Source of the DNA: Oculina patagonica
Lineage: Eukaryota
Assembly (NCBI RefSeq): GCF_052425735.1
Contig: NC_135764.1
Coordinates: forward strand, 10,354,001-10,418,000
Direction of reading: 5' to 3'
Length of the DNA stretch: 64,000 nucleotides
The notes beneath the pieces are model-generated. The model was not told the DNA's origin. It did not search any database and saw only the letters and a list, made by a program, of their open reading frames with translations. The translations under genes were made by a program, and so were the position numbers. The stretch's first letter is position 1; the number at the start of each line of letters is the position of its first letter. Shown here piece after piece: positions 2,121 to 19,360 of this stretch.

Positions 2121-2233
2121 TTCAATTGAACTTAATAACAAAAGGCATGGCACGCGACAGTAGTAAAGGGCGCTTACGCACGGGCACAACCAATCACAGA
2201 GCAGCATTTCTGCGCATGCGTAGAAGAGAAAAT

Positions 2234-2525
2234 CACGTGACTAGGATGTGGATGACGTCATAAGAGTTGGTCCCAGGGTGTCCGAGTGTGGGTTCCAGGC
2301 CCCGGCGGCCAAAAGCGCTCGCCCCAGTCCTTGCGCGAAAAAAAAACGACAAGACAAGAAAATAGGCGTAAAAGGGAAAACCACGTGACTTAGGGGTGTG
2401 ATGACGTCATAGGAGTCGGCCCCAGGGTGTTTGGAGTGTCGGTCCCAGGCCCCGGACGGTTAGAATGAACTCGGTTCCAGTCCTCGCGCGGAAAAAAACG
2501 ACAAGACAAGAAAATAGGTGTAAAA
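2234..2525 (+). promoter_or_regulatory. Two ~148-bp direct repeats in the TIR, each with an E-box and an ATF/CRE palindrome
   Basis: CACGTG at 2234 and 2382; TGACGTCA at 2253 and 2402; shared CGACAAGACAAGAAAATAGG tail. CCAAT and NRF1-like TGCGCATGCG motifs lie nearby (2190-2220). Confidence 0.65.
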
Positions 2526-2597
2526 ACAGGTTTTTTAATAACAGGTTTTTTATGTTAAGGTACAAGACACTAAAAAACGGTAACAAGTGGTCCTAAA

Positions 2598-2669
2598 GCC
2601 CCGGTAGTGTAACGGGTATCACTCCTGCCGCTGAGGTAGGCAATCGAGGTTCGAGTCCTCGCTGGGGAT
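2598..2669 (+). tRNA. tRNA-like Pol III gene, anticodon CTG (Gln-like, atypical), left TIR copy
   Basis: Cloverleaf GCCCCGG-TA-GTGTAACGGGTATCAC-T-CCTGC-CG[CTG]AG-GTAGG-CAAT-CGAGG-TTCGAGT-CCTCG-CTGGGGA-T; A-box TAGTGTAACGG; B-box GGTTCGAGTCC; T9 terminator at 2671-2679. G33 and the G1:A72 mismatch are non-canonical. Confidence 0.8.
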
Positions 2670-3270
2670 ATTTTTTTTTCCTTGTGTCAATGTTCCCTAA
2701 GCCCTAGTGGCCGCGCACCCTGGGAATGAACGTGTACAAAGTTAGCAAGACCACCATCCTATAGATATGGTTCACAAAGTGCCATACTGTCCTTGTGGTA
2801 TCTGGAACTCAATACTTTGCACTAAACGCATGCGCAGATGAGTCTACGCGATACACTCACGATTGATAATTAGTTACCTCTCTTGTGAAGACCACAAAGG
2901 TTGTCTCAGAAAGCGCCATGCCTTCCTTATGGTATGGTTCTTCCTGGCACTAAACGCATGCGCAGATGAGTCTACATTGCTTCGGCGATTCTGAAAAAAC
3001 GCACGCTTGTGAAGTATTAAAAAAAACACGTCAGAGAGGGGGGATGAGGGGGTATCCCCCTTTCTCGGGTGTACTGGGAACGAGTACGAATCGAGCGGTG
3101 AGAGTGTTTATATCTCAAAAGATGTCGACAAGTAAGTTATTAAATATTCAGTTATGGAGAACGATCAACGTGGGTACGATTGAAACTATATCAACGTGTT
3201 GCGGTAGGTTTCCCATCTGGGGCATGCTGTTGGACACAACAGCATGCCCCATACGAGCTAGTGGGTAGAA

Positions 3271-6200
3271 CTAGGCGTTAAAGTAACCATAGGGGTATGA
3301 CATAAAGGTGTTGGCATCTACCACTCTCTTGTCGAAAACCACTTGATAGCGCTTGATCTCCGTCACAGTGTTCAGGGTTTTGGTCGTTTTGTCTCGGGTG
3401 ATCTTGTGAGGGTTGAACACGGCAATGCTCCTCGTTTCGGCCAAGGGTTCTTTCACTTCGGATTTGACGTTGTCTTTCAATGTCTCAAAGTTGAGATGGG
3501 CGGATCCTCTCACGTTCAAGGAAAAACCCCTTACTTTACAACAGGTTTTTCCCAGTTTCGTCTTGTAGGCATAGTTTTTAGGTCCGGCGGCGGCAAATTC
3601 CACAATGAAGTCATCATCGTCTAGTTCGTTGGTAAAGTCTCCCAGGTAATCACCCAGCGGTAAGGAGGGCTGACCTTCTCGATGTTTGTAGATGAGGGAA
3701 TCTGTGTCAAAATACAAGATCTGTTCGGGTTGCAGGATGGAAAGACCTTCTTGGTACAGCTTCAAACGGGCCCAGGTGGTCGTAAAGCAGGCCACAAAGA
3801 TGTTGATGTCTGGTTGAACGTTGGCGCAGTCCTCCTTGCACTTATGGACCACCTCCAACATCTCTGGATTGACGACCCGAATGTCGTGGATGTCTCGGGT
3901 CTCGTCTCTTAACAAGTCGTGAAACTCAGCTGCAGAGGTGAAGGCTTCGACTTGGGTCTTGTTGCCTCTCTGACCATACTTGCCCCAAAAACTATTGAGC
4001 ATGATCTTGGCCAGAGATCTGCGTCCGGGATTCTTTTCAATCTTGTCCGGATCCAACTGGAGGCCTTCTTTGAGAAAGAACTGTCTCAAGTATTCCTGGC
4101 GTTTGTCTGGATCGTCGCCCACCCACGAGGGCCAACCGCTCGCTTCCTGCTTCATCTTCAGGAAGGTGTTGACATACTCTTTAAACATGGTGTTGGATTT
4201 GCGGTCAAAGTGCCACACCTCGTGAATGTGTTCCACCACGTACCCTTGCTTGACGGCCTCTTCCAACTCGGGCGTGCACCACGTTCCGGTCAGTTGGCGT
4301 TCTTGAGGGCTGTGAGCGCATTTGGAGGATCGTTGGGTCAACGGCTTGGGCTGCTCCACTTCCACGCAGGTACGGCAGAGGGGGAATGTCAGTTTACCCC
4401 CTTGGCGATAGGGCAACACGGGGCTGTACAACCCGTAAGGTGGCGTCACCGTACACTTTGCCAGACCGAAGAATTGTGAAATGTTCGTGTGTCCCGGTTC
4501 TAGGATCACTTCCGGATGCCCTTGAGGGTAGTCACAGTTTTTGTTGACCCAGGGGTACAACGAGGTAAAGTCCACGTACCGGATCTCCTCTTCAGGTTCG
4601 GCAAGGTCATAGAGGCGGACGGCATTGGTTCTACCGCCAAAGAACGCGTCTCGGGGCTCCAAGCGGGAGTTGATCGACAACGAGTCCACGAACGATTTCA
4701 CCTCGGGATCACTGTCCTTGAGCGCTTTCCACTGGCATTCCCACATTTCTACCACGCGGTACCCCGCATCTCGGATCCGCTGCGTCTTTTGTTGCGTTTC
4801 CGCGTACACGTCCCTCAGACTTCTGTCGCCCATCTTCCGGTGCTTCTGATCGCGATTGGGAAAACAGTCAGGACAGCCGTGAAAGTAGCAGCCGTGGAAC
4901 TCGTAAACCGTGCGATCCTCGTACCCGTCGACGTTCATCAGACGGTGTCCAATCCACAAGGCTCGTTCTCCACCGTTCCTAGCGTGACGGATGGTGCCCT
5001 GCGTCTGGCTGTCTTGATAGAGCAACCATTCCAGCGACACCAGGGAGTGAGGTTTGCCCTTGCCTTCCCAGCCTCGTACCGGTTCAGAAGCCAAGGTCTC
5101 TTCTTGCATGCACTTGGTGCGGTAGAAGCGATTACAGGCGGAGGCAATGGTGAGGCATTGCTCCATGGGATCGAAGCCGGCAATGGCTTGAAACTCTGCC
5201 CGGAAGACCTTGCAACCTTCGTGCAACAGTTCCACGTCTGAGCGACAGTAGTCGACAAGTTCGTTCCGAAAGTGGAACTCGTAATTCTCCGCCACGCGTT
5301 CCTCGTACCACTTGTCGAATTCGGCTTTCCTGGCAGTGGACATTCCCTCTGGATCGTAATAGTCTCTGGCAGGCATGCTGCCCACATAGTTTTGGTGTTC
5401 CTTCGTGTTGAAAAAGTGGGGGAAAAACCCCTTCTTTTGTTCGGTGAGGCCAAAGGCTTTGGGAAAGGTAGCAAGGCTCATCTGTAGAAAACACATGGAG
5501 TCCTTAAAGGTGATGCGGGGGATGGTCATGCTGATTATTTTGGCACCATTGACGACTTGTTCAGGGCAGATGGCTTGGTCGTACAACTCGTTTAGTATGA
5601 AATACGAGTCGTAGCCTTGGAAGTTATGAGCGACAGCTATGACGCGGTGTTGTTCGGCGATCTCCCTCAGCCAAGCGAGAAAGTCTTTCACGCAAGTCTC
5701 TCCCTCAAAGGTTCTCCTCTCGTCGGTGTCTCCTCTCAGGGCGCAAATCAAGTTGGCCACGTGCTCGCCTTCTTCCTGCCTGGCTTCGGCGTCCCAACTG
5801 ACGAACACGGGTGGTTGGTCTTCTTTGCGTTGACCGGCGCTGGTTCTCTTGCGGTTCTGTTTTTGTTCCACCTTGAGAGGATTTTGTATGTAGCACTGGT
5901 GGTAACGAAGATCTTGGTATTCCTTGCAGGACGGACAGGAAGCATGGCCGCACTTGTGACTGTTTCTCAGTTCATAGTCACCGTAGGTCTTGAAACACCC
6001 CGTACACCGTTTGTGCTTGTCACACACACTGTTCTTCTTGTCTGGGGTCATGTCTTTACCGGTGTCGGTGCGACTCTTGTGCAATTGAAGACAGCGGGTT
6101 CCAAAAAAGTCCCGTTGACAGTCTGTACAGTTCACCCTGGGTACAGCGTGGGCTCTCTTCCATTCGTGGCAATCGGTCTGATGGCAGGCGGCGCACCTGG

Positions 6201-7137
6201 CACCCGGGCAGCGGTGTTGCCTCCGGTCATTGTGGCTGAAGCCCTTTTCGCATTGGGTACAATAGTAACTCTTTCCAAAAAATCCCCCTAGGGTGGTACA
6301 GCCGTGGTAATGGTCATGGTGTTTGATCAAGATCAAACGTTTGTCGTCGGGGCGTTGTGCTCCTTTGAAGATGATCTGGTAACCATGTTGGACAGACACC
6401 ACCACAATCTGGTAAGCGTTCAAGTGGGCTTGAAATTTGGCCAATTCGTCCAAGCCGCAAGGACCTTCTGGCACGTCTGACAAACGGTGTAGTTCCTTGG
6501 CTGCCCTTTCTTGCACCGTATCATGCCTCCTTAAGTTTCCATAGTACCAATGGTCGGTCCCGAAATCGGCCCGGGCCTTCATCATCACCAAGGCACGGGC
6601 ACAGCATAACTGGTCGGTGTTTTTGATCTTGAAGACACACCGTTTTTTCTGCAGGATGTCCTCGATGGGGTCCAAACCGGGTTTGTATTTCTGGTTGTCT
6701 CCCCCTCGGCCTGGATCTTGCACGTGAGACACGTTTAGGTTGAACGTGTCGTCCACTTGAAAAGTCTGATTACTGTTCAGCATGTCACTGATTTGTTTTA
6801 ACAGCTGTTGGGCAGCGACGGTGTTTTCTCGCCACTCTCCCACTCTCAGACGTCTGGAATGAAAGGCATTTTGAATTCTGTTACTGTTGATGTTGATCAA
6901 CAAGTGGTCGTCATCTCCAACCGCTCCATCATCCAAGATATGGCGCTGTACGGCTCTCTGCAAGGCTCGGGCAATCTGTTGTGGGAGTACGGGACGCGGT
7001 CCTAGGGGTGCGGATTCTACTGCGGCACCACCACCTGTCTGTATTAGGCGTCCGGTAAAGTTTCTGATATGGAGGCCAAATCTGCGCACTCTGCGGTCCA
7101 CGTGACCTCTCAGTTCAAATTCAAAAGGAGCTTCCAT
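3271..7137 (-). CDS. polB: Protein-primed family B DNA polymerase: N-terminal terminal-protein/OTU-like and Cys-rich regions, exonuclease, inserted Vsr-like nuclease, polymerase
   Basis: Exonuclease motifs WDAE, AHNFQGYD, YCRSDV; polymerase motifs YVDFTSLYP, KIMLNSFWGKYGQ, YFDTDS, GPKNY; insert YEFHGCYFHGCPDC...GYRVVEMWECQW; OTU-like DQLCCARAL...HDHY. The first ATG is at 7137 (the ORF track starts at a TTG at 7182). Confidence 0.97.
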   Translation of the reverse strand: MEAPFEFELRGHVDRRVRRFGLHIRNFTGRLIQTGGGAAVESAPLGPRPVLPQQIARALQRAVQRHILDDGAVGDDDHLLININSNRIQNAFHSRRLRVGEWRENTVAAQQLLKQISDMLNSNQTFQVDDTFNLNVSHVQDPGRGGDNQKYKPGLDPIEDILQKKRCVFKIKNTDQLCCARALVMMKARADFGTDHWYYGNLRRHDTVQERAAKELHRLSDVPEGPCGLDELAKFQAHLNAYQIVVVSVQHGYQIIFKGAQRPDDKRLILIKHHDHYHGCTTLGGFFGKSYYCTQCEKGFSHNDRRQHRCPGARCAACHQTDCHEWKRAHAVPRVNCTDCQRDFFGTRCLQLHKSRTDTGKDMTPDKKNSVCDKHKRCTGCFKTYGDYELRNSHKCGHASCPSCKEYQDLRYHQCYIQNPLKVEQKQNRKRTSAGQRKEDQPPVFVSWDAEARQEEGEHVANLICALRGDTDERRTFEGETCVKDFLAWLREIAEQHRVIAVAHNFQGYDSYFILNELYDQAICPEQVVNGAKIISMTIPRITFKDSMCFLQMSLATFPKAFGLTEQKKGFFPHFFNTKEHQNYVGSMPARDYYDPEGMSTARKAEFDKWYEERVAENYEFHFRNELVDYCRSDVELLHEGCKVFRAEFQAIAGFDPMEQCLTIASACNRFYRTKCMQEETLASEPVRGWEGKGKPHSLVSLEWLLYQDSQTQGTIRHARNGGERALWIGHRLMNVDGYEDRTVYEFHGCYFHGCPDCFPNRDQKHRKMGDRSLRDVYAETQQKTQRIRDAGYRVVEMWECQWKALKDSDPEVKSFVDSLSINSRLEPRDAFFGGRTNAVRLYDLAEPEEEIRYVDFTSLYPWVNKNCDYPQGHPEVILEPGHTNISQFFGLAKCTVTPPYGLYSPVLPYRQGGKLTFPLCRTCVEVEQPKPLTQRSSKCAHSPQERQLTGTWCTPELEEAVKQGYVVEHIHEVWHFDRKSNTMFKEYVNTFLKMKQEASGWPSWVGDDPDKRQEYLRQFFLKEGLQLDPDKIEKNPGRRSLAKIMLNSFWGKYGQRGNKTQVEAFTSAAEFHDLLRDETRDIHDIRVVNPEMLEVVHKCKEDCANVQPDINIFVACFTTTWARLKLYQEGLSILQPEQILYFDTDSLIYKHREGQPSLPLGDYLGDFTNELDDDDFIVEFAAAGPKNYAYKTKLGKTCCKVRGFSLNVRGSAHLNFETLKDNVKSEVKEPLAETRSIAVFNPHKITRDKTTKTLNTVTEIKRYQVVFDKRVVDANTFMSYPYGYFNA

Positions 7138-7522
7138 CTTGAAACAAAGGAAATAAGGCAATGAATGGATGGAAAAAAACAAATGTACGTTTTTTTTTAT
7201 CTATATGACTGCCATGTTCGGAGTCATCAGCACTCTTCCAAAGTACAGGGGTCTCGAACAAATCTGCGTACTCTCCGGTCAACGTGGCCTCTCAATTGAA
7301 AGTCAAAGGCAATAAGGCAATGAATGTACGTTTTTTTATCTATATGATGGCAATGATCGGAGTCATCAGTACTCGTGGAAAGTACAGTGGCCTTTAAAGT
7401 GACTACAAGAACATTTGTCCGTAATTTTCTGTTTTCCTGTACAGCTCATTAGAATATTACACAGCATAAAAGCACATGAAAAACGGGTTACACAAATTCA
7501 CTCTACTCTAATAACTAGTTAC

Positions 7523-7761
7523 CTCTTCATTGGACTCTCCTTCACTTGTGCTTGCACTCGGTTCGCCACCACCACTTGTACTTGCACTCTACGATGAAAA
7601 GAACATCGTATAAATAAAAAACATTGGCGAATCAAATATAACCCAACGCATCTCATCAACGTACCTCTTCCAATCTAGCTCTCTCCGGGCTCTCAGCCTC
7701 TATATCTTCTCCCAGTAGTAGTCTCATCTCCAACCATAGTAGTCTCATCTTCTTCTTCCAT
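7523..7761 (-). other. Two small upstream exons of the leftward (PolB-side) transcription unit
   Basis: Exon 7748/7761-7665 ends GAG|GTACGT; a 76-nt intron ends TTCTTTTCATCGTAG; exon 7588-7523 (SASTSGGGEPSASTSEGESNEE) ends GAG|GTAACT. TATAAAA on the minus strand at 7823-7817. Confidence 0.55.
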
Positions 7762-7934
7762 TGTAGCGCTCAGACCAAACAAAGTTTGCGAGTGAATAAA
7801 TGAGCAAAGTAGCTCCTTTTATACAACTTTTCCATCCCAGAAGAACTGGGCTCTAGTATTCCCATTGGTCAATCGAGGTGACCTGATACAGAATGAACCA
7901 ATGAGATCTCATGATCAATGTCACCCAAGGTGAC

Positions 7935-8075
7935 GGGATTTTCCCCACAAGGGTAAAATCCCAAGCTGACGGGATTTTCCCCACAAGGGTAAAATCCCGG
8001 GATTTCCCCCCAAGGGAAAAATCCCGACGCACGCGCGTGGAGAATCTTTCTCGGAATTCTCGGAATTCTAGGAAC
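7935..8075. promoter_or_regulatory. Cluster of NF-kB/Rel-like sites upstream of the PolB promoter
   Basis: GGGATTTTCC at 7935 and 7971 and GGGATTTCCC at 7999 fit GGGRNWYYCC. Opposite-strand near-matches GGGTAAAATCCC (7951, 7987) and GGGAAAAATCCC (8014); then GGAATTCT twice. Confidence 0.55.
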
Positions 8076-8614
8076 CCGCGTGTGTTCATTCTCGGAAAAG
8101 TACAGTAAAACGGACAAAGTTTTCTTGTCGGATTACAGCTCTTTTCAAGAAGGATATAAGCTTTAAGGTGAGCTAATGTCTCCATACTCTACTGTACAAG
8201 ACGAAGAGCGTTTGATAAATTGTATTTACTGCGAAAAATAAATTTGGTTACGTTGTAAATTTTGACGAGTGGTTTGTTTTTGTTCGTGCGGCCATCATGA
8301 ACCGTGCATAGTAAAGAAGAAGAAGGTTTTAGACCCGTTCATTTCGTTCAAGGTTTTTTGGTCTAGTTGTGTTTATGGTCAAAAAAAGAAGAAACCGAAC
8401 TTTACGAATAAACAAGTCGTTTTTGGTGGACTGAATTATTCTTTTAAGCGAAATTGCTCGCGCAGTTGTCGTTTTCTTTCGTAAACAACAACAACTTCAA
8501 ACGCCTTCATCTTTTTCTTTTCGCAGTCTTAAAAATATCGAGGGAACATCCCACTATGATTCAGAAAAAAAATAAAACCTAGCCACCTAGAAGTGAAGCT
8601 TAAACGTTGTAAAT

Positions 8615-9325
8615 CCTAAACAAGTGTGTCAACGACTTTGTTGTGATTTTTCACCGGTCGCGAAAAAATATAATTGTAGCGTGCAGTTCATTTGGCCGTT
8701 GTTCAAATGCATTTTTCTCGAAGAAAAATTTTTTTTGGCGGCCCTTATATCAAAGGGACGTCTAACCATGAATGATATTATTTCGATGAATGTAAGTGAG
8801 CAAAAAATTTCATATTTTTGGACTCTAAGCATAAGTGTCATCGACTTTGTTGTGATTTTCACCGTTCGCGAAAAAATATAATTTAGCGTACGGTATTTGT
8901 TGTTGTTTAAATGCGTTTGTTTGTTTGTTTTTGCGGCCCTGAAATGAAAGGGACGTCCAACCATGAATGATATTATTTTAGTAAATCTCAAAGCAAGTCA
9001 TTGAGCCGGATCTTCACATTTTTACACCCTAAACAAGTGTGTCAACGAGTTTGTTGTGATTTTTCACCGGCCGCTAAAAATATAATTGTTGTAGGTGGTT
9101 CATTCGGCCGTGTTCAAATGTTTTTTCTCGAAGAAAAATTATTTTTTTCGGCCCTTAAATCAAAAAGGACGTCCAACCATAAAAGATATTATTTCGATGA
9201 ATGTTATTGAGCCGAAAATTTCATATTTTTGGACTCTAAGCACAAGTGTCATCGACTTTGTTGTGATTTTCACCGTTCGCGAAAAAATATAATTTAGCGT
9301 GCGGTATTTGTTGTTGTTGTTGTTT
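8615..9325. repeat. AT-rich internal tandem array, ~205-210-bp monomers in a ~413-bp dimer
   Basis: CCTAAACAAGTGTGTCAACGA at 8615 and 9028; TTTGTTGTGATTTT(T)CACCG...AAAAATATAAT occurs four times. Confidence 0.85.
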
Positions 9326-9382
9326 AAGCGATTGAATCCCATACTCTCGTAATTCAGTTTCGGCATGGAGCAATTTGTAAAT

Positions 9383-9904
9383 TTATTTAACAACAAAAGT
9401 CTGGTACCATAACCAGAAAGCATGACATTCGGTCATTGGACAATGTCCTTCGTATAGATGAAAACCGCAACTAGGTAAAGGTTCTACAATTGTCTCTTTC
9501 AACACGTCGTATTTCGGACATCCGTACAGTTCTAAATTCACGCTAGGAATGTTCAGTTTGTTCAACAAGTCTCTTTCGACGTGTCCTCCCTTGTAAGCCA
9601 CCACGGTTCTCTCGGGGGTTTTGGTCTCCTCGTACAAATCCCACATCACCTCCTCCACCCTGTCATACTCGTAGGCCTTTTCTTCCTTTCTGGGTTGATA
9701 CGTCAGTCCGTGCACGTTGTATTTGACGTAAGACACGGTTTTTCTGTCTCTGGAAGATAAGTTGCACCACGACATTCTCATGTAGAAAGCATGGCGTCCG
9801 AACTTTTCTTGCCAAGTGTAATAACCCAACTCGCGTACTCGAAACGTCTTCTCCACAAAGTAACCTTCCAAGTCCAAGATCATGCACACGTTTTCCGGAG
9901 TCAT
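9383..9904 (-). CDS. DEDDh-fold 3'-5' exonuclease with ECHC-type Zn site (arenavirus NP exonuclease / Maelstrom-like)
   Basis: ILDLEG...VRELG, KYNVHGL, VAYKGGHVERDLL, SCGFH...GHCPMTEC; AATAAA overlaps the stop codon. Confidence 0.7.
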   Translation of the reverse strand: MTPENVCMILDLEGYFVEKTFRVRELGYYTWQEKFGRHAFYMRMSWCNLSSRDRKTVSYVKYNVHGLTYQPRKEEKAYEYDRVEEVMWDLYEETKTPERTVVAYKGGHVERDLLNKLNIPSVNLELYGCPKYDVLKETIVEPLPSCGFHLYEGHCPMTECHAFWLWYQTFVVK

Positions 9905-9969
9905 GCCAGAGCTAACTGCACTCTGATGCTTGACGTAGAAAATATATGAAAATGTTTAAACTGTAAATC

Positions 9970-10878
9970 TCAATGATCCAAATTAGGATATTGTTTCTGG
10001 GAAATGCATCTCAGATACAGTTGATTTCTCAGCATTTTCTCTTCATCCGAGTCGTACTTCACGCCAGCCAATTCCGGGGGAAGAATAATTTTCCCTTCTC
10101 CATCCACCCAAAACTTTTGCTCTTGACACTGTTTGACCAATGACTCGTCCAAGGGAAGATCACCAATCCAATCCTTGACCGGGGGTGGGTAGTGTTGTAC
10201 TTTGAAGGCGGGTCTCCCATCCAGAATTCGTTGCGGTCTATCCACCACGTCTTGTCCTCTTCTGGGGTATCCAAATTCGTCCCTAGAGTCCAGTCCAGAC
10301 CTTCTCGAGTAGAGGGGATCCTCGTTTCCCACATATTCCTTTCCTTCCAGCCAGGCTTTGATCTTGCCAAACGGAACACTGTCGGCCCATTGGAAGAACC
10401 GGCATTTCCCTTTTCTGCACTTCAAATAGATCCTGTTCGGGTTGCTCTCTGATTTCGACATGCTCAGAATGAGACTCTCGTTGCAGTAACATTTCATCTT
10501 ATCCATGTTCCAATAATAGTAAGCCGGTAATTGTTGATTGACCGCCACCACGTACTGGTCAATGTGGGCGCTACCGGTGCAAATGAAACAGATGGTGCCT
10601 TCGCTCGTGTGGGGGCAAAAGTAGAACTCCCATCCCCCGTCCGTCATTCTCTTGGTCAGCGGTTCTTTGTGGACGGGGCAAACCGGGTCGCGCTCCGTGT
10701 CGTCAAAGGTCTGTTGTAGGAACTGGTCGGGGTCGAAAATTTCACCCTCCTCCAACACTTCCTCTTTCAACTCCATCTTCTTCTTTGTAGGATGTCTCTT
10801 TTTACGGGGGACTTTGGGTTTCTTGGGGTTTCCAGTCCCTCTCCTCTGTCGCTTTTTTTGGGGTTCTGCTACGTCCAT
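9970..10878 (-). CDS. Nuclear zinc-finger protein: basic NLS, EEGEI motif, Cys/His finger and GRF-type zinc finger
   Basis: KKRQRR...PRKKRHPTKKK; LEEGEIFD; CPVH...FYFCP...CFIC; CYC-x13-NPNRIYLKC-x4-CRFFQWAD-type zf-GRF pattern. Confidence 0.75.
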   Translation of the reverse strand: MDVAEPQKKRQRRGTGNPKKPKVPRKKRHPTKKKMELKEEVLEEGEIFDPDQFLQQTFDDTERDPVCPVHKEPLTKRMTDGGWEFYFCPHTSEGTICFICTGSAHIDQYVVAVNQQLPAYYYWNMDKMKCYCNESLILSMSKSESNPNRIYLKCRKGKCRFFQWADSVPFGKIKAWLEGKEYVGNEDPLYSRRSGLDSRDEFGYPRRGQDVVDRPQRILDGRPAFKVQHYPPPVKDWIGDLPLDESLVKQCQEQKFWVDGEGKIILPPELAGVKYDSDEEKMLRNQLYLRCISQKQYPNLDH

Positions 10879-10926
10879 GGTGCTCTCGATGCTCCAACTG
10901 AGGACTAACAGGAGACAACACGGTGC

Positions 10927-11040
10927 TTTTATACTTTACTCTCGGATGACGTCAATACGCACGAACCAACCAGAGAGGTAACACGTGACCTCTTCCGACC
11001 AACCGGCAATGACCCAGGTGACGTCATCCAACGTATAAAA
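10927..11040. promoter_or_regulatory. Compact bidirectional promoter between the leftward and rightward gene blocks
   Basis: TATAAAA on - (10933-10927) and on + (11034-11040), enclosing TGACGTCA (10947, 11019) and CACGTG (10982). Divergent ATGs at 10878 and 11077. Confidence 0.7.
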
Positions 11041-11076
11041 AGAGCTGCGCGTCCATTTGTCGACTCAGTTGTAGCG

Positions 11077-11352
11077 ATGGAAAGCACAGACAGCGATTCC
11101 AGCCAAACTCAAACTCAAACCCCACAAGTCAACGGTGTCTTTGTACAAGGAGATCCCAAGGACTGGGAACCATTGCCTTACTATAGGGATCTAAAAAGGG
11201 GCGATTATCAATCGGACGAAGATTACCTATTGGAGCGCGCGAAACGTGGCATGGAAGCAGGCTACACGTTTATGCAGTGTCAAGAACATTGGATGTGCGA
11301 TCTGGAGAGTGCATTATACAAAGGTTCGGCCGAAGCAAGCCAAGAGCAGTGA
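11077..11352 (+). CDS. Hypothetical acidic protein (91 aa)
   Basis: First ATG after the TATA box, good initiation context (GCGATGG), tightly packed against the next ORF. Confidence 0.65.
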   Translation: MESTDSDSSQTQTQTPQVNGVFVQGDPKDWEPLPYYRDLKRGDYQSDEDYLLERAKRGMEAGYTFMQCQEHWMCDLESALYKGSAEASQEQ

Positions 11353-11353
11353 C

Positions 11354-12124
11354 ATGGGTACGAGAGAAAACTGGCTGGACCTGGAACAACGACTCTTCTA
11401 CACCAATTGTACAAAGCTAGAAAAAAAGATCCAGACCGACACGGGAATCACTGTGTTGTCGTTAGACTATCCCACCACCATACCCGAAAACATTCCAAGG
11501 AGAGTCTATGTCTTCGAGGACATGGTGAAAGAGCGCGGGTGTGCCAAGAACCGCGTCACCGAAAGTGAATGGCTCAAAGAGAACCCTCACTGGAAGGGAG
11601 CCGTGATGGCGACCATCAAAGACATTGGGCACGGTTATCTCTGGGATAGACATTGGAATGAATTTGTCTACGTGCCATTGCAGCGAGCCTTTTTCTTCGT
11701 GACGTCTCGCAAACCGCCGCCCATTGGCATCGGCGTCTCGTTCTGGTTGAACGCGAACGTCTGCGACTTTGACGACCGGAGTGGTTTAGAAGATCTCATC
11801 GCACCGTTGAGAGCGAGTGTAGCCCTAGGCCAGACATTGTCTGCCTACTTGAAACAACCTATCACGGTCGACGCAAACACGTACGAAGAACTGTGCAACC
11901 AACTGGCAACTCAAGTAAAATTGCAACGCCTAGAAAGCAATCGCTGGCAAGAAATAGCGGATAGATTGTTAGACAGAGATCTCTGCAACCGTTGCGCCAT
12001 GGATAAAGATGAAGCTTACCTGGGCGACGACTACCAAAAAGCCAAACTGTGGAGACCTAGAAGTTGCGAAACTTGTACAAAATCTTTTGATAACATATTT
12101 ATTGATGCAGGCTATTTAAATTGA
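11354..12124 (+). CDS. Hypothetical protein (~256 aa) with a C-terminal CxxC...CxxC motif
   Basis: ATG 1 nt after the upstream stop; CNRC...CETC; AATAAA at ~12134. Confidence 0.7.
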   Translation: MGTRENWLDLEQRLFYTNCTKLEKKIQTDTGITVLSLDYPTTIPENIPRRVYVFEDMVKERGCAKNRVTESEWLKENPHWKGAVMATIKDIGHGYLWDRHWNEFVYVPLQRAFFFVTSRKPPPIGIGVSFWLNANVCDFDDRSGLEDLIAPLRASVALGQTLSAYLKQPITVDANTYEELCNQLATQVKLQRLESNRWQEIADRLLDRDLCNRCAMDKDEAYLGDDYQKAKLWRPRSCETCTKSFDNIFIDAGYLN

Positions 12125-12151
12125 CGTTGTATAAATAAAAGTTCATTTGTC

Positions 12152-12463
12152 ATGGATCTGTATGGAAAGTGGGAGTGGTTGAAAAGATTGTGCGAGAAAG
12201 CGTATGCTGAATTTGGGAGGGGTATAGATATACCGGAAGATACGAGTGACTCCCCCTTGAGAGTGTTCGAAGCCACCCACATAGAACAAAACTATTTCAG
12301 ATTGATACCGTTTATATTATGGTTGAGACATTTCAAGGATCCAGCCGAGCTGTTTGCTTCTATTTACAAACTTCATCCGACCACGATCGAAGAGGCAGCT
12401 CATAAATTACACGTCACTTATATGAGGGTGGTCAGAGCGTCGTCGACATGCCAAAGAAGCTGA
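12152..12463 (+). CDS. Hypothetical protein (103 aa)
   Basis: ATG-initiated ORF filling the gap before the integrase and overlapping its start. Confidence 0.55.
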   Translation: MDLYGKWEWLKRLCEKAYAEFGRGIDIPEDTSDSPLRVFEATHIEQNYFRLIPFILWLRHFKDPAELFASIYKLHPTTIEEAAHKLHVTYMRVVRASSTCQRS

Positions 12464-13527
12464 AAAAGGATGAGAAGATACTTTTGGACTACCACGATCC
12501 CAGTCAACCGGGTAGCTTGGGCGGGATAACAAGATTCGCCAAAACGCACAAGATATCTGTCGACACAGCCAAAAAAGTATTGGAGCGCGATTTGGGTTAT
12601 ACCCTTCACAAACCGCGCAGACGTCGTTTCGCCACGTTACCGGTCCTGGTGTTTAATGTCGACCAACAGTGGGTAGCAGATTTAGTGGAAACGCAACCGT
12701 TGTCCAAATACAACAAGGGTCACAGATATCTACTCAACGTGATCGACGTCTTGTCTAAATATGCCTGGGTGGAACCCCTAAAAGACAAGACGGGAAAAAC
12801 GGTGTCGGACGCCTTTGCCAAGATTTTGAAACGAGCCGATGGACGCAAACCTCAGAACCTACAGACCGACGACGGGAAAGAATTTTACAACAAGACGTTT
12901 GCCGCGTTGATGAAACGGGAAGGCATCCACCACTTTTCCACGGCCGGAGATACCAAAGCCAGCATCGTGGAACGCTTCAACCGCACTCTCAAGGAACGCA
13001 TGTACCGATACTTTACCGCCAAGAACACGCTCAGTTACCTACCTGTACTCCAGGCCTTGGTGAGAGGGTACAACGGATCCCACCATCGTAGCATCGGCAC
13101 CAGCCCCGAGAAAGTGAATGCGAGCAACGAAGGAAAAGTGTGGGAACGTCTGTACGCGAAGAGGTTGTCGTCGCGTAAAAGAGAACGAAAAACCCCGCTA
13201 AAAGTAGGAGAACGCGTGAGATTGAACAAGAAATTTCGCACGTTCGAGAAAGGGTATTTACCCGGCTGGACCGAAGAAGTGTTTGTGATACGAGAGGTGC
13301 TTCGGGGACCACCCGTCACGACTTACAAGATCCAAGAGTTGGACGACACCCCCCTTCGCGGTACGTTTTACAAGGAAGATCTACAAAAAGTCGCAGTGTC
13401 CGACGACGATGTCTTCAGGGTGGACAAGATCGTCAAACGAAAAGGAAATAAAGTCTTGGTGCACTGGAAAGGCTGGCCAGACAAGTACGACAGCTGGATC
13501 GAGAAGACGGCTCTAAAAAAATCATGA
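12448..13527 (+). CDS. int: Retroviral-like (rve) integrase with a C-terminal chromodomain
   Basis: QWVADL, VIDVLSKYAW, LQTDDGKEF, VERFNRTLK (DDE); chromodomain FRVDKIV...VHWKGWPDKYDSWI. Confidence 0.96.
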   Translation: MPKKLKKDEKILLDYHDPSQPGSLGGITRFAKTHKISVDTAKKVLERDLGYTLHKPRRRRFATLPVLVFNVDQQWVADLVETQPLSKYNKGHRYLLNVIDVLSKYAWVEPLKDKTGKTVSDAFAKILKRADGRKPQNLQTDDGKEFYNKTFAALMKREGIHHFSTAGDTKASIVERFNRTLKERMYRYFTAKNTLSYLPVLQALVRGYNGSHHRSIGTSPEKVNASNEGKVWERLYAKRLSSRKRERKTPLKVGERVRLNKKFRTFEKGYLPGWTEEVFVIREVLRGPPVTTYKIQELDDTPLRGTFYKEDLQKVAVSDDDVFRVDKIVKRKGNKVLVHWKGWPDKYDSWIEKTALKKS

Positions 13528-14555
13528 GCCACGAGGAAGGATTTTACGTCACGTTACCCAGTCACAGCAGCGGAACCGAGTTTCCAGAGAATAGAGCAAA
13601 CTCTTTCAAGGTGCGATTACCTCACCCGCTACGATTGGAAGGAACCGGTTGGAAAGTGGGATTGAGTAGCATTTCCGTGCCAGATGCCAGCATCGACTTA
13701 ACTCGCTTTAAGTCGTTCAAGTTTCCTCTCTTGAGTGCTCAGTGGATGCTCAAGCGCAAAGACAACGAGGGTCGCGTGCAAAGCAAGTCGGTGACCACCG
13801 ATCTGACGTTCCAGGACATTCTATATGACGACAACATCGTGGATGGCCTCAGTTTCATGAAAGCCCTGGTCTTCAAGTTCGATCAAGTCAAAGAATACAA
13901 GCGTATCGTGGGAGACTTGACCAAGTCGCCCGATAATGGAAAGCAGTGGGAATATACGTTCAAGTGGGAAGGTGAAGAACTAGTCCTCGACAACTCGAAC
14001 TTGGACGTCTCGGAAGTGAAAACTGAAGGCGTCCCATATTACATGTCTTTCAACGAGGATTTGGCCTTTGACATGGGATGGGTAAAAAAGGACGAGAAAG
14101 AAAACGTGTTTCTCGGGCCGAACCTGAAGCCGGAATGCCACCACGCTACGATACCCGATCCCATAGACGTGGATGATTTTGGAGAGGGCAAGAAAAATTT
14201 CTGGGTTGTTGAGAATGGACAGCTTTTCTTGAGTTGCTATTGTAACTGGCGCTTTGTGAAACTCAACAGAGCCTTCCAAAAAGTGATTGGAGATGCATCG
14301 CGTACGCTTTTCGTTTACTCAGATGTGGGTGGTAGTTCCGTTGTGGGAAATCAAGTCACGGATCTGTTGCGGGAAATTCACTTTCAACGTGAAGGAAAAG
14401 GTATCAAGTACTTTGAACCTCTCCACATACAATATATTCCACTCCGCAACCAGATCGTGGACATTATTGAAACGCAAGTGAGCGAGACTACAGGTAAACT
14501 GGTGGATTTTGGCGAAGGCAACACGATCGTGACCTTACATATCAAGCGAACATGA
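13524..14555 (+). CDS. Minor capsid protein (penton; Polinton PX-like)
   Basis: N-terminus FYVTLPS...FPEN...FKVRLP...WKVGLSSI and C-terminus LFVYSD...VGNQVTDLLR...YIPL...VTLH, typical of Maverick pentons. Confidence 0.85.
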   Translation: MSHEEGFYVTLPSHSSGTEFPENRANSFKVRLPHPLRLEGTGWKVGLSSISVPDASIDLTRFKSFKFPLLSAQWMLKRKDNEGRVQSKSVTTDLTFQDILYDDNIVDGLSFMKALVFKFDQVKEYKRIVGDLTKSPDNGKQWEYTFKWEGEELVLDNSNLDVSEVKTEGVPYYMSFNEDLAFDMGWVKKDEKENVFLGPNLKPECHHATIPDPIDVDDFGEGKKNFWVVENGQLFLSCYCNWRFVKLNRAFQKVIGDASRTLFVYSDVGGSSVVGNQVTDLLREIHFQREGKGIKYFEPLHIQYIPLRNQIVDIIETQVSETTGKLVDFGEGNTIVTLHIKRT

Positions 14556-14809
14556 GAGGCGGTGCCCTGACGCGTTTCACACCGGATCCTCCACCTCAAG
14601 AGGGGAACGGATTTTTGGCCGACATCGTGAGAGAGTCTCTCGGTGGAGCCGTGAGAGGATTTAAGAGTGGGCGCGGCGTCGCGGACCGCATTCGTAAAGC
14701 GGGTCAAGGAGCCAAGAGTGGTCCTAAACGAGTCGTGAAACGCAAACTGAAAAACGTCATAGAACGAAACGTCAAGAGAAAACTGAACGACATCTTTGGC
14801 GAAAAATGA
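14552..14809 (+). CDS. Small basic virion-type protein with QEGNG motif and amphipathic helix
   Basis: QEGNG-FLADIVRESLGGAVRGFK; ATGA overlaps at both ends. Confidence 0.7.
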   Translation: MRGGALTRFTPDPPPQEGNGFLADIVRESLGGAVRGFKSGRGVADRIRKAGQGAKSGPKRVVKRKLKNVIERNVKRKLNDIFGEK

Positions 14810-15042
14810 ATCCCGTTTACTCGCGATCGTCCAGACTGGTCCGATCCAAACGCGCCCCCGTCAGACAGCGGGGAGAAGGATTCTCACTGGCACTTTTGAA
14901 CCAGGCCTTGTTGGGACAAAAGAGGCGACGACGAAAAGTACAAAAGGGCGGGTGGATAGGTCCCGAGGTCAGAAAGCCTCCTGGCTACGACTGGATACAG
15001 ACCTTACGGAAGCGCAGTGGAAGAAGGAAGAGAAGACGATGA
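14806..15042 (+). CDS. Small Arg-rich core-type protein with QRGEG and QKGG motifs
   Basis: RQRGEG-FSLALL and VQKGG-WIG; ATGA overlaps at both ends. Confidence 0.65.
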   Translation: MNPVYSRSSRLVRSKRAPVRQRGEGFSLALLNQALLGQKRRRRKVQKGGWIGPEVRKPPGYDWIQTLRKRSGRRKRRR

Positions 15043-16442
15043 CCGAAACCATCTCGAGCGCCTACCCGCAGTCGAGACGCGAGGCCAATCCTCGATTGGA
15101 TCTATTCGCCGTACCACCGACAGACGTCAGCGTCTCGTCGTATCGGATGGTCCCCGTTCAGACCTACACCACAGGCATCAATCCGGTGGAGTTTCAGATC
15201 GACCCCCAAGAAGATTACATCGATCTCAGCCGTAGCTTTTTCGAGGTAGAATTGCAACTGAAGAAAGACAACGATGAGAACGTGGCAGCTGCCGACAAGC
15301 TGTGGCCCGTCAACAATCTAGCCCATTCTCTGTTCAAGCAAATCAGCGTGCGTCTCAACGGTACTCTCATCAGTCCCCAGACGGACACGTACCATTACAG
15401 AGCCTTCTTGGAAACGTTGCTGAATTACGACAGGCGTGATGGAGAAACCATCTTGAAACCTCAAGGATGGTACAATCATATCGATTTCCCAGCCACGTGG
15501 ACGGACAATAACACGAACACTGCAGCCAACGCTGGAGCTGGACACGCAGACTATGTAGCCCTGACCACCAATCACAAGGAGGCTCTCAAGAACTCTAAAG
15601 CAGAACAAGCCAATTACACGGAAGGCAAGCGACACGTGTTGCGTTTCAAACCCCTCATCGAAGTGTTTCATCTGAGCAAGTTGTTGGTACCCAGAGTGCA
15701 GATAGGAATACAGATGTACTTCAATTCTCCCGACGTGTTCTTGAACGGAGTGGGTCTGGCAGGAAAGTTGACGGCCGAGGAAGTCAAAGTTCGAATGTAC
15801 CTGTGTCAAGTGCGTCTCAATCCCACGACGTACAGGAGACTGATGGATGAGATGACCACCAAGAGTCAAGTGGTGAGTTACCCGACCGTGAGAAGCGAGA
15901 TTCGGACCTTCAACATGCAGGGAGATCAACGACGGTACGAATGCACCAACTTGTTCCAAGGAAGAATTCCCAACCGCGTGATCGTGGGTATGGTACTGTC
16001 CACAGCCTTCACCGGGAACGTGGTCAACGATCCCTTCTGTTTTCAGAAGTTTGGAATGAGCAGCATAAAACAACTCGTGGGAGGAGAAGAGTATCCTTAC
16101 GAGACGCTAGAACTGGTTCACAACGATGCCACCAAAGATCTCAGAGGGTACCACCGTTTCTTGCAAGCCACCGGATGTCTGTGCAAGCAGCAAGGAAACA
16201 TGGTGAGAGGTGACGATTGGGGACAAGGAAAGAATTGCACGTTGTTCGTGTTCGACAACGTGGCCAATGGATGCGTGGACAGTTACAGGATGAACCCCAA
16301 GCAAGCCGGAAATCTACTAATAGAGCTGAACTTTGGAGCCAACCCAGCTGTGAACTTGACCATCATCGTGTACGGAGAGTTTGAGAATCTCTTGGAGATA
16401 GACAAGAACAAAGCCGTGTTGTACGACGTGTACCAGCGTTAG
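15039..16442 (+). CDS. Major capsid protein (double jelly-roll; Polinton PY-like), 467 aa
   Basis: LDLFAVPPT, YIDLSRS, NNLAHSLFKQISVRLNG, YRAFLETLL, IPNRVIVGMV...AFTG...DPFCF. The ATG at 15039 overlaps the upstream TGA. Confidence 0.92.
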   Translation: MTETISSAYPQSRREANPRLDLFAVPPTDVSVSSYRMVPVQTYTTGINPVEFQIDPQEDYIDLSRSFFEVELQLKKDNDENVAAADKLWPVNNLAHSLFKQISVRLNGTLISPQTDTYHYRAFLETLLNYDRRDGETILKPQGWYNHIDFPATWTDNNTNTAANAGAGHADYVALTTNHKEALKNSKAEQANYTEGKRHVLRFKPLIEVFHLSKLLVPRVQIGIQMYFNSPDVFLNGVGLAGKLTAEEVKVRMYLCQVRLNPTTYRRLMDEMTTKSQVVSYPTVRSEIRTFNMQGDQRRYECTNLFQGRIPNRVIVGMVLSTAFTGNVVNDPFCFQKFGMSSIKQLVGGEEYPYETLELVHNDATKDLRGYHRFLQATGCLCKQQGNMVRGDDWGQGKNCTLFVFDNVANGCVDSYRMNPKQAGNLLIELNFGANPAVNLTIIVYGEFENLLEIDKNKAVLYDVYQR

Positions 16443-16444
16443 TG

Positions 16445-17014
16445 ATGGAGAAAGTGACTTTGAATAACGTGCAATTGGATCAGTTGGCCAGACATCACCC
16501 GTCGTTGAAGCCTTACTTTTACGGGACGGTGGCCTGCGATCGATTACCTCGCAAACCACTCAAGACGGAAGCCCGCGGGTACATCGTCAACACCGATCCT
16601 CACTACATGCGCGGTCGGCATTGGATCGCGCTGTGGACGAATGGAAACGTGTGCGAAGTATTGGACAGTTACGCCTTACCCCTAGAAGTGTACCAGACGG
16701 CGCAACCGTTGCAAGATTGGTTGGACGATCATTGGAAGTACGTGGAGCGCAACGGACAGAGTCTACAATCGTTGTACAGTCAGAGCTGCGGCGATTACGC
16801 GTTGATGTATCTCATCGATAGGGCCGAAAGACGTAGCATGAGTCAATTCGAAGCGAGATTCAAGAAACACGATTACGTGTACAATGATCATAAAGTTGGG
16901 CAAATGTTGAAGCAATTGATCTCGAAGGAAAGGTCGTGGCACAAAATTTGTAAGATGGAATACCATCAGGATTGTGAACCGTCTCTCTGCGGTGTAAGAC
17001 ACTTGTTGTTGTGA
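16445..17014 (+). CDS. Adenain-like cysteine maturation protease
   Basis: YIVNTD...GRHWIAL (His), LDSY (Asp), LQSLYSQSCGDY (Gln/Cys); AATAAA signals at 17022-17045. Confidence 0.92.
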   Translation: MEKVTLNNVQLDQLARHHPSLKPYFYGTVACDRLPRKPLKTEARGYIVNTDPHYMRGRHWIALWTNGNVCEVLDSYALPLEVYQTAQPLQDWLDDHWKYVERNGQSLQSLYSQSCGDYALMYLIDRAERRSMSQFEARFKKHDYVYNDHKVGQMLKQLISKERSWHKICKMEYHQDCEPSLCGVRHLLL

Positions 17015-17146
17015 GATGACAAATAAAAACGTTGAAATAAATAAGGTGTGTGTCGTCTGTCGCTCGGGAGATCGGGATTCGTTGCAGACTTTTTTTCTGC
17101 AACATGCTTATATCATTGCTCGTTTTTTGACGAATGTCATTTCGCC

Positions 17147-17812
17147 ATGGAGCGCGGTGAAGCCTTTAGCTTTCGGATGCCCTCTAGCATTTTGATCGTG
17201 GGCCCCTCTAGCTGCGGAAAGACTTGTTTTACCGAGTCGGTACTTTTGAATCACTCAAAAGAGTTGTTTAGTACACCCCCTGAGACCATTCATTACTGTT
17301 TTGGGGCTTGGCAAGACGGTTTCGCGAACATGAAAAAGCGAGGCGTGAAATTTCACGAAGGGATTCCCGAAGAAGTAGATTTGACCAAATGGTTTCCCCG
17401 TGGAGGGGTGATGGTATTGGACGATCTGATGGAAGAAGGAGGAAACGACAAGAGAGTATTGGATCTGTTCACCAAACTTTCCCACCACAGGAACATCACC
17501 GTCCTGTACTTGTGTCAAGACATGTTTCCGCCGGGAAAATACGCCAAGAGCATTTCTCGAAATGCGCATTACATCGTGGCTTTCAAGAACCCTCGCGATC
17601 AATTGGGCATGAGGAATTTACTGTTACAAGCGTTTCCCTCCCGATGGCAAGATGTGATGGACGTCTACACCAAGACGACGGAAAGACCCTTTGGTTACAT
17701 GGTATTGGATCTACACCCTGCCAGTGGCGACGACAGACGGATTTTTAGCCACCTCTTAAAAGGCGAGGGATGCATGAGATGTTACAGATTCGTTCGAGAT
17801 GTTCGTACGTAA
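17147..17812 (+). CDS. FtsK/A32-like genome packaging ATPase
   Basis: Walker A GPSSCGKT, Walker B MVLDD, SHHRNITVLYLCQ, SRNAHYIVAFKNPRD. Confidence 0.93.
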   Translation: MERGEAFSFRMPSSILIVGPSSCGKTCFTESVLLNHSKELFSTPPETIHYCFGAWQDGFANMKKRGVKFHEGIPEEVDLTKWFPRGGVMVLDDLMEEGGNDKRVLDLFTKLSHHRNITVLYLCQDMFPPGKYAKSISRNAHYIVAFKNPRDQLGMRNLLLQAFPSRWQDVMDVYTKTTERPFGYMVLDLHPASGDDRRIFSHLLKGEGCMRCYRFVRDVRT

Positions 17813-18038
17813 CGATCACGTGTGGCTCGTGTTCTTGGACTTGTGCAGTCGTCATTTCGAGCGTATGAGAGAAGAGGACATGGACTACGACGCCATGCAA
17901 ACCGTGCTACATTTGGCCGAAAAGCGACAGATGTGGAAATTCGTGAGAGAATATAACGAGACTTACTTCAGCGAATTGATCCAGACATTAGAAGAGAGAG
18001 CTAGAAAGACATGTCAAGACATTCGCCAGCAGGAGTAG
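17799..18038 (+). CDS. Hypothetical protein (79 aa)
   Basis: ATG ORF overlapping both neighbours in the packed rightward block. Confidence 0.55.
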   Translation: MFVRNDHVWLVFLDLCSRHFERMREEDMDYDAMQTVLHLAEKRQMWKFVREYNETYFSELIQTLEERARKTCQDIRQQE

Positions 18039-18412
18039 GAACCAGTCCTAGTGCCATTCCGATCGTCAACGTCAACCGAGGGGGATTGAAACAGACATTG
18101 GATCGAATCGACCCCATAGTCCTAAGACGGTACTTGGATCAATTACCGTCTCCTGCAGTGGGTACGGGGACTTTGAGACCTTCTTCCTCGAGGTCCAACG
18201 TACCTGCAGGTCAAGGAACGCTAACGGGTGGTCCACACCAATTGAATCAAGACGACATGCAACGTCAATTGCAAATGCTGTTCAACGATCAACGTCAAGT
18301 GGCGGCTGGACGTCGCATCGCAGGCATCACCACGACAAACACCATCACTACGACCTATAAAGACGGGGGACGACCGACCGTTCGTCGTACCTCGACGAGA
18401 GTGAGCCATTAA
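18011..18412 (+). CDS. Hypothetical protein (133 aa), Thr/Arg-rich C-terminus
   Basis: ATG ORF in the packed block; ATTAAA at the stop. Confidence 0.6.
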   Translation: MSRHSPAGVGTSPSAIPIVNVNRGGLKQTLDRIDPIVLRRYLDQLPSPAVGTGTLRPSSSRSNVPAGQGTLTGGPHQLNQDDMQRQLQMLFNDQRQVAAGRRIAGITTTNTITTTYKDGGRPTVRRTSTRVSH

Positions 18413-18414
18413 AG

Positions 18415-18909
18415 ATGTCCCTACTAAACGGGTCGAAGACGAACTTGGATCCAGACCTGTTACACAGATTGGACGGATTGTATACCTTTTACCACAAAAA
18501 GTGGTGGTGTCATCGTCAAATGTTTTACCATTTTAAGTGGTGTCATGCTTCATTGAACGCTTTGGCTTTATTCATCGTGGCAGCGGGTGTCATTGCGGGT
18601 TCCCTTACAGAAAATAGTGTTATTGTGGCATGCCTAACTTCAGCTGGGACTGTCGTCAAGGGCTGGAACGATTTCAAGAAATATTCGTTCAAAGTGGACG
18701 TATGTCGTTTTGCCTACACCAGCTACGACAAGACGTTGATCGAATTGAGAACGTACGCGCGCGGTCTTCCGATGGACGAACTAGAAGGATTCTTGATCAA
18801 GATGCAAACTCTAGATGACACGATCACCGATTTCACGCCGCCCGTGGCCGACAAGTACGTGCAAGCGTACGAACGACAACACGATAAATCCGAAGGTACC
18901 CCCGTCTGA
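18415..18909 (+). CDS. Two-transmembrane protein, SLATT-like architecture
   Basis: Hydrophobic hairpin LNALALFIVAAGVIAGSL / VIVACLTSAGTVV followed by the helix FKKYSFKVDVCRFAYTSYDKTLIEL. Confidence 0.65.
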   Translation: MSLLNGSKTNLDPDLLHRLDGLYTFYHKKWWCHRQMFYHFKWCHASLNALALFIVAAGVIAGSLTENSVIVACLTSAGTVVKGWNDFKKYSFKVDVCRFAYTSYDKTLIELRTYARGLPMDELEGFLIKMQTLDDTITDFTPPVADKYVQAYERQHDKSEGTPV

Positions 18910-18927
18910 AGTGACAGTTATGGTAGG

Positions 18928-19149
18928 ATGGGAAGAACGAAACGTAAGGCCAGAAGAAAGAGGCAGCGAGGTGGGGCTCTCGCGAGACGTAAACATCGTT
19001 TGGTGGACAAGATAGCCGAGGGGGCCAGCATGTTTCTCTCGGGTCCTTCACCCACATTCTTCACGTTGGGTGGTAAATTGGCCAGTCAAGGATTTAAAGG
19101 GATAATGGATAATGTAAATCATTATAGACGTAGACCGCGACGACGATAG
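18928..19149 (+). CDS. Small Arg-rich protein with QRGG motif
   Basis: MGRTKRKARRKRQRGG-ALARR...GGKLASQGFKGIM...RRRPRRR. Confidence 0.7.
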   Translation: MGRTKRKARRKRQRGGALARRKHRLVDKIAEGASMFLSGPSPTFFTLGGKLASQGFKGIMDNVNHYRRRPRRR

Positions 19150-19153
19150 GACC

Positions 19154-19360
19154 ATGAGGAGAAAGAAACGTGTGACGCAAAGGCGGAGACGTGCTGGCAG
19201 GAGAAGAATAGGACAGAAGGGTGGTATTTTACCCTTAGCAGCCTTGATACCAGCTTTGATCGCGGGTGGAAAAGCAATCGCTTTGGGTGCTGCATCGGGT
19301 GCTGCAGGTTGGGGTGCAAAGAAAGCCTTGGATGCAGCCACTCGAAAGAAAAAGAGATAA
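19154..19360 (+). CDS. Adenovirus pX(mu)-like core protein
   Basis: Arg-rich N-terminus, then QKGG-ILPLAALIPALIAGG, resembling the pX xxGG-FLPALIPIIAAA pattern. Confidence 0.7.
   Translation: MRRKKRVTQRRRRAGRRRIGQKGGILPLAALIPALIAGGKAIALGAASGAAGWGAKKALDAATRKKKR

Follow-up and report, generated by a model that had tools for sequence, protein, structure and literature searches.

A tRNA-like gene in both terminal inverted repeats of an Oculina patagonica Maverick, a putative non-decoding tRNA mimic

For protist Polinton-like viruses and virophages, 558 tRNA calls have been published across 8,300 genomes, and the supplement of that study contains 37 occurrences of tRNA-Gln (PMC12220804, as excerpted). 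A figure legend also flags tRNA genes in MELD viruses (PMC8502044, as excerpted). These 558 calls soften the premise of a preliminary description of the DNA analysed here, under which tRNA genes would be out of the ordinary in such viruses. The MHV68 vtRNAs are Pol III products encoded at the genome end; according to the available part of PMC4337559, they are not aminoacylated and one of them alone partly restores virulence. Mavericks occur widely across animal genomes, where annotation covers hardly more than their proteins. The word 'tRNA' has 0 occurrences in the main text of a coral polintovirus survey (PMC11131425), and in the open-access literature we found no paper on tRNA-like genes in animal Maverick terminal inverted repeats (TIRs).

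The window, that is, the whole stretch of 64,000 nucleotides of Oculina patagonica DNA that was analysed, contains a Maverick whose TIRs each carry a tRNA-like gene (Table 1). The element has the features by which Mavericks are recognised: pPolB and an rve integrase, long TIRs, AG...CT ends, a 6-bp target site duplication (TSD) and a length within 15-25 kb. In its capsid/ATPase/protease module, the protease match lies below the Pfam cut-off, and the capsid and ATPase were named from size and order alone. The left TIR also contains, outside the tRNA-like gene, what we take to be a CCAAT motif (2190), E-boxes (2234, 2382) and CREs (2253, 2402). Elsewhere in the window, a histone 3' stem-loop match (22890-22934) lies directly downstream of a Tc1/mariner-type transposase ORF (22941-23792, minus strand), and 33978-36401 holds an element with repeat-rich inverted ends of ~165 bp about 2 kb apart.

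Table 1. Coordinates, within the window, of the Maverick, its tRNA-like genes and its main coding regions
Feature	Position	Strand	Remarks
Intact Maverick/Polinton, PLA2X-type adintovirus layout	2159..22105	.	19,947 bp, AGTAGT termini
Left 6-bp TSD, CGCGAC	2153..2158	.	right copy 22106-22111
Left terminal inverted repeat	2159..2847	+	TIR ~690 bp
tRNA-like gene, type A	2598..2669	+	faces inward; anticodon loop 2629-2635, G33, CTG; G1.A72 unpaired
Pol III A box	2605..2616	+	inside type-A gene
Pol III B box	2648..2658	+	inside type-A gene
T9 run, predicted Pol III terminator	2671..2679	+	one base past discriminator (starts 2 nt after position 73)
Protein-primed DNA polymerase B (pPolB), 1288 aa	3271..7137	-	
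rve integrase with chromodomain	12448..13527	+	
Likely major capsid protein, 467 aa	15039..16442	+	named by size and place ahead of protease; no Pfam match
Adenovirus-type protease	16445..17014	+	weak Pfam match, below cut-off
Likely relic of Asp-like tRNA gene, after protease gene	17057..17096	+	GTC loop, variable loop and T run left; A box and most of T arm gone
PLA2-like (PLA2X) gene	20836..21201	+	PMC8502044 (excerpt)
Right terminal inverted repeat	21416..22105	-	TIR ~690 bp
Identical second copy of tRNA-like gene, right TIR	21594..21665	-	inward-facing; own T9 at 21584-21592

Both copies were called tRNA-Gln(CTG) by ARAGORN, which reported exactly these two genes in the 64-kb window. In a local scan of 1.1 kb, the Rfam tRNA model, whose gathering score is 29, matched at 36.0 bits (E = 1.2e-5), and the whole-window Rfam scan at the gathering score gave no match to the type-A gene. 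The 72-nt cloverleaf with A and B boxes, CTG anticodon and T9 run given in the preliminary description was thus recovered, as were the two inward-facing copies in the Maverick TIRs; these are one feature duplicated with the TIR and count as a single observation. Both boxes and a terminator of at least four T's, the sequence elements that define type-2 Pol III genes, are present. The T stem (5/5) and the anticodon stem (5/5, including one G.U) pair as had been claimed, the D stem pairs 3/3 with position 13/22 unpaired, and the acceptor stem 6/7 with G1.A72 open. Measured against a canonical tRNA, the gene has a cloverleaf above the Rfam threshold and lacks both U33 and a paired 1:72, with G33 and G1.A72 in their place as originally noted. 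The folding energy of type A showed no advantage over shuffles (z -1.08), so the evidence lies in the tRNA model match and in conservation rather than in stability. Over a mascRNA-like reading (Rfam, E 5.2), Pol III is favoured by the boxes and T9, and a reading of the anticodon loop one base off (GCT/ACT, both Ser) was dropped because the variable arm is short and one transition yields the pattern by chance. The labels that ARAGORN assigns in this animal genome, tRNA-Gln and tRNA-Pyl, are an annotation pitfall.

A DNA search of the 529-Mb genome of the same organism gave 33 matches at E<=1, which, like all genome copy counts here, is a lower bound: 25 of type A, identical across the 72-nt gene, 7 of type B and one decayed copy with indels (C12). 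All 32 copies of types A and B lie at Maverick ends. Fifteen inward-facing pairs, spaced 15-20 kb apart, account for 30 of the 33 matches, and of 30 loci retrieved, 29 have a Maverick terminus upstream. A SINE would be expected to have dispersed copies with a body and tail, and none were found outside Mavericks in these own-genome searches; the earlier statement that there is no SINE body was borne out. Type C was first picked up by ARAGORN, a structure-aware tool, near a capsid match, and is represented by 3 copies: both TIRs of one TSD-flanked element and one partial element end. A search of the own genome with type B and a purine-33 pattern search (58 matches, control 48) yielded no further tRNA-shaped copy beyond types A-C.

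The three types are mutually 68-85% identical (A versus C, 74-76%). The anticodon is CTG in types A and C and CTA in type B; types A and C have G at position 33, type B has A, and 66/66 host tRNA calls in the sampled loci have U. With 9 host isotypes and one Arg-like repeat compared, the closest sampled host tRNA to type A was Asp (64%), with Gln at 57%. The candidate parent isotype is Gln by anticodon, D arm and phage matches, the best of which were tRNA-Gln genes (77% over 70 nt), and Asp by best host identity (64-69%). One dispersed tRNA-derived repeat of the host, with a D arm like that of type A, reached no more than 61% identity to type A and carries a separate body. A tRNA-derived host repeat of ~165 bp, dispersed at loci L227-L254, has an 8-nt anticodon loop and often occurs in tandem 300 bp apart. 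RNA-model matches at 29033-29104 and 63874-63946 of the window resemble a host tRNA-Arg-like dispersed repeat. A search of IMG/VR found no relatives of the element's polymerase or capsid, and the lone pattern match there, a tRNA of unrelated sequence within a tRNA cluster on an 83-kb contig, was discarded.

Comparison with related Maverick TIRs, suggested earlier as a check, showed that the sequence recurs as types A-C with the stems kept. Among the 5 distinct variants of these types, the D, anticodon and T stems were 100% paired and the acceptor stem 80%, with pair 1:72 open in 4/5 variants and the acceptor stem of type B paired 7/7. Overall pairing was 93%, compared to 89.0 ± 1.4% in shuffles (2/500) and 42-55% in slid controls, a count over related copies that left out the decayed, fold-breaking C12 copy and included type C, found with the structure-aware tool. 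Seven one-sided changes fall in the D, anticodon or T stem, and pairing survives every one of them (rough chance 5e-4 at 50% transitions, 0.013 at 80%); 4 of these 7 are in the anticodon stem, outside the promoter boxes. Two-sided pair changes numbered 2, a figure reached by 144/500 shuffles, and the covariation score was reached by 17/500. As a result, of the compensatory changes sought, the one-sided, pairing-preserving kind was found throughout, whereas formal two-sided covariation was weak. Between types A and B, the gene was identical at 61/72 positions, and the flanks matched at 17/60 and 19/60 and were not alignable. Across the 25 type-A copies, which are not independent, 0/72 columns varied in the gene versus 12/120 in the flanks (Fisher p 0.004). 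Contigs from public runs contained T-stem changes that would break pairs at 2646 and 2649 (X15) and at 2661 (X8), perhaps because they derive from decayed copies.

The distribution of the cassette among Mavericks was examined from a capsid search of the own genome, which gave 67 matches. The close-relative set comprised 30 elements with 89-100% capsid identity, a 91% family being left out. Cassette A, B or C was present in 18/30; 3/30 had a different, outward-facing degenerate unit in both TIRs; 8/30, all intact and TSD-flanked, had no cassette (unfiltered search, one end of 7 of the 8); and in the remaining 1/30 the ends were unresolved. One TSD-flanked element combines a type-A cassette at one end with a type-B cassette at the opposite end (C10:13.93 Mb), another has the cassette at a single end (C8:28.88 Mb), and a B-type TIR at C3:3.6 Mb is without one. 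This indicates that the cassette is an optional, exchangeable TIR module. At 16 more distant Maverick loci, the outward unit occurred in both TIRs of 1; the other model matches there were host-repeat-like and lay outside the element where ends were resolved. The outward-facing D/E units, which occupy both TIRs in 4 elements, retain their boxes and T runs, with only 8-13/20 pairs left. They belong to other TIR types (L033/L034, L045/L046, L055/L056, L071/L220, L199), one with a ~50-nt insertion. Module shuffling was strong: across the 30 elements, near-identical capsid modules were paired with at least 6 TIR types and with pPolB 37-100% identical. In all three B/B elements (C14:13.54 Mb, C2:13.13 Mb, C1:26.76 Mb), pPolB is cut to ~155 N-terminal amino acids with the TSDs kept, and the TIRs, of 2.1-2.4 kb, hold a second PLA2-like gene. 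These elements are likely non-autonomous satellites.

Other tRNA-derived genes were found inside related Mavericks. At the site matching the likely relic in our element, directly after the protease, the C7:26.6 Mb element (L060), a 91%-capsid relative, carries a full-length Asp(GTC)-like gene; it stands back-to-back with a divergent, box-only Pol III-type unit (L060:9804-9964). A metagenome scan gave 33 related loci, mostly short, in which we identified no TIRs. The tRNA model matched in 6 of them. Four have Met(CAT)-like genes (L190:1564-1636, L166:4591-4663, L165, L189), placed behind the protease in three loci and ahead of the integrase block in one; of the other two, one has an Arg(ACG)-like gene and one an Asp-like unit that lacks a T arm. 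The internal tRNA-like genes of the metagenome loci carry U33. Two complete Met-like genes differ at 9 sites, with 3 pairs changed on both sides, 2 changed on one side with pairing kept and 1 broken. In one Met-like gene the anticodon stem includes three G-C pairs, an initiator-like trait. A search of the 529-Mb genome with the Met-like gene gave no match, which does not prove absence. Taken together, the internal genes, the relic and the varied units indicate that these Mavericks repeatedly gain, keep and lose tRNA-derived genes.

The type-A gene was covered by contigs of all four public runs, which bear four organism codes, not necessarily four species; being assembled, such contigs do not reveal where an RNA begins or stops. 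In run X2, A>G conversion across the TIR is nearly complete: a contig of 199 nt spanning 2587-2760 carries 33 differences against 36 A's in that stretch, and A>G accounts for 21/38 of the changed places, compared to 2/14, 1/7 and 4/26 in the remaining runs. The pattern resembles ADAR hyper-editing of sense RNA, seen in one run of four and with no matched DNA; the process is known in coral (PMC5850803, as excerpted). Since the X2 RNA runs through T9, it differs from the predicted Pol III product and is no proof of expression of the gene. PolyA-like hexamers beyond the pPolB stop occur at 3112 (TATAAA) and next only past the gene, at 2554 and 2539, so that antisense read-through could supply the partner strand.

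How the gene might act can be weighed from these observations. In the explanation that we favour, with the scales about level, the TIR-borne gene would give a ~75-nt Pol III RNA that mimics a tRNA or acts as a decoy without itself decoding, a reading prompted by a shape that is conserved while charging and decoding features drift. TFIIIC and Pol III would transcribe it off the integrated or replicating genome, its presence in both TIRs would double the RNA dose, and the RNA would fold into the tRNA L shape with poor charging or decoding. It might then bind host factors that recognise tRNA shape, and here we can only guess among tRNA-cutting defence nucleases, La, and uncharged-tRNA or dsRNA sensors. 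The boxes, the terminator, the confinement to Maverick ends, the stems kept in three types, the purine 33, the loose acceptor and the optional gain and loss all support the mimic. Against it count the dispensability of the cassette (8/30 intact relatives lack it), the persistence of box-only D/E units in TIRs, the compatibility of G33/A33 with decoding and the modest covariation from 5 distinct variants. We consider it rather unlikely that the gene works instead in cis, with TFIIIC/Pol III binding keeping the TIR open or stopping silencing chromatin that would enter from the host side; the RNA would then be a by-product. Barrier activity of tDNA is established, the cassette lies near the element ends, and boxes and T run survive in the D/E units although their stems have decayed. 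A barrier would not need the anticodon stem, however, which pairs 5/5 in all A/B/C variants though outside the boxes; intact elements exist with no, one-sided or mixed cassettes; and the CCAAT/CRE/E-box motifs lie outside the gene, unshielded. CpG o/e was alike with (1.02-1.10) and without the cassette (1.02-1.09), a weak proxy for silencing since all copies are young. Of the two functions first proposed, paired insulators are accordingly weakened, and a virus-owned small RNA is supported by the absence of dispersed SINE-like copies, the recurrence in TIRs and the anticodon stem kept outside the boxes.

The remaining explanations seem to us less probable still. A captured tRNA gene could be neutral cargo, copied to both TIRs by end-homogenisation and spreading with successful TIR types until deleted, and the modular, recombining TIRs (the mixed A/B element), the cassette's loss from a B-type TIR and from one TIR at C8:28.88 Mb, the second tRNA-gene relic and the gradation of units from intact to degenerate would all fit. 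What makes this unlikely is that all D, anticodon and T pairs are kept by types up to 32% apart, that the gene is invariant among type-A copies while flanks vary, and that the Met-like pair of related Mavericks shows 3 two-sided and 2 one-sided pairing-preserving changes versus 1 break. Somewhat more doubtful yet is a damped decoding tRNA, with A and C reading CAG as Gln inefficiently and B (CTA) acting as a weak amber suppressor. CAG made up 0.35-0.40 of the Gln codons in elements that have a cassette and 0.34-0.44 in those that lack one (19 elements in all), no shift; tblastn alignments of integrase, capsid, protease and ATPase in 7 A/B elements contained no in-frame stops; the capsid TAG is immediately followed by TGA; the host has many tRNA-Gln(CTG) genes; and G1.A72 is found in A and C. 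For the lack of a codon shift and of in-frame stops, and with TAG backed by TGA, we rejected both codon compensation and any amber read-through in genes of the element itself. The decoder would nonetheless agree with the full cloverleaf, the CTG common to A and C despite 74-76% likeness, the complete type-B acceptor and the tRNA-Gln phage matches. G33/A33 also occur in natural mistranslating tRNAs of low decoding efficiency, in which decoding is damped, not abolished (PMC11415595, as excerpted), leaving room for a weak decoder. By far the least probable source is a recent insertion, into the TIR, of a SINE head or tRNA pseudogene from the host. tRNA-derived repeats are indeed dispersed in the host, and the D arm of one resembles that of type A, but this repeat shares no more than 61% identity with type A and brings a body of its own, Asp is the closest host tRNA sampled (64%), and the own-genome searches found no dispersed copies outside Mavericks. 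Confinement to Maverick ends and low identity to host repeats thus largely refute this explanation.

If the gene is expressed, these viruses would own small-RNA genes under structural selection, like adenoviruses and gammaherpesviruses. The genome itself offers a natural comparison: its near-identical elements carry a cassette at both ends, at one end, of mixed types or not at all, so that expression and silencing can be contrasted between individual copies. A bolder picture, speculative and in our view improbable as a whole, is that animal Mavericks have their own counterpart of VA RNA: purine-33 TIR mimics would provide bulk Pol III RNA that jams tRNA- or dsRNA-sensing defence, beside internal, normal-looking Met, Asp and Arg tRNAs, and type B would be a damped amber-reading tRNA spread by polymerase-less satellites.

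Among known systems, tRNA-derived SINEs share with our gene a tRNA-like head with A and B boxes; the Maverick unit is without body or tail, has no dispersed copies and keeps its stems. The mistranslating G33/A33 tRNAs likewise have a purine replacing the near-invariant U33, but as presented in the excerpted PMC11415595 they are cellular, have intact acceptor identity and were shown decoding, whereas in the Maverick gene 1:72 is mostly open and we found no codon target. Adenovirus VA RNAs come from type-2 Pol III small-RNA genes of a related protein-primed linear DNA virus, with decoy action as a model; they are ~160 nt, internal and dsRNA-like, in contrast to a cloverleaf unit of ~75 nt (PMC4378190, as excerpted), and the Rfam VA model did not match the Maverick unit at E<=10. 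Protist Polinton-like viruses, virophages and MELD viruses resemble our element in having tRNA genes, including tRNA-Gln, within one broad virus group. Their tRNAs were read as codon-compensating, and the available portions of PMC12220804 and PMC8502044 describe no TIR location, purine-33 family or animal Maverick. In the nuclear dsDNA virus MHV68, the vtRNAs/TMERs are tRNA-like too, have internal Pol III promoters and lie close to a genome end; besides being uncharged, the vtRNAs are dispensable for basic replication (PMC4337559, PMC4378190, both as excerpted). The Maverick gene differs as a single, TIR-duplicated unit in an unrelated virus, known here from sequence. A TMER-like pre-miRNA hairpin between tRNA and terminator was sought and rejected (extended fold z 0.2); with T9 adjoining the cloverleaf, Pol III could co-transcribe no miRNA hairpins. 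By this comparison, the MHV68 vtRNAs appear to be the closest working likeness, yet the gene does not qualify as a TMER, for want of a downstream hairpin, or as a VA RNA, by size and fold. tRNA genes are already known in protist Polinton-like viruses. The gene in the Maverick TIRs is likely a non-decoding tRNA mimic, similar to the vtRNAs of MHV68.
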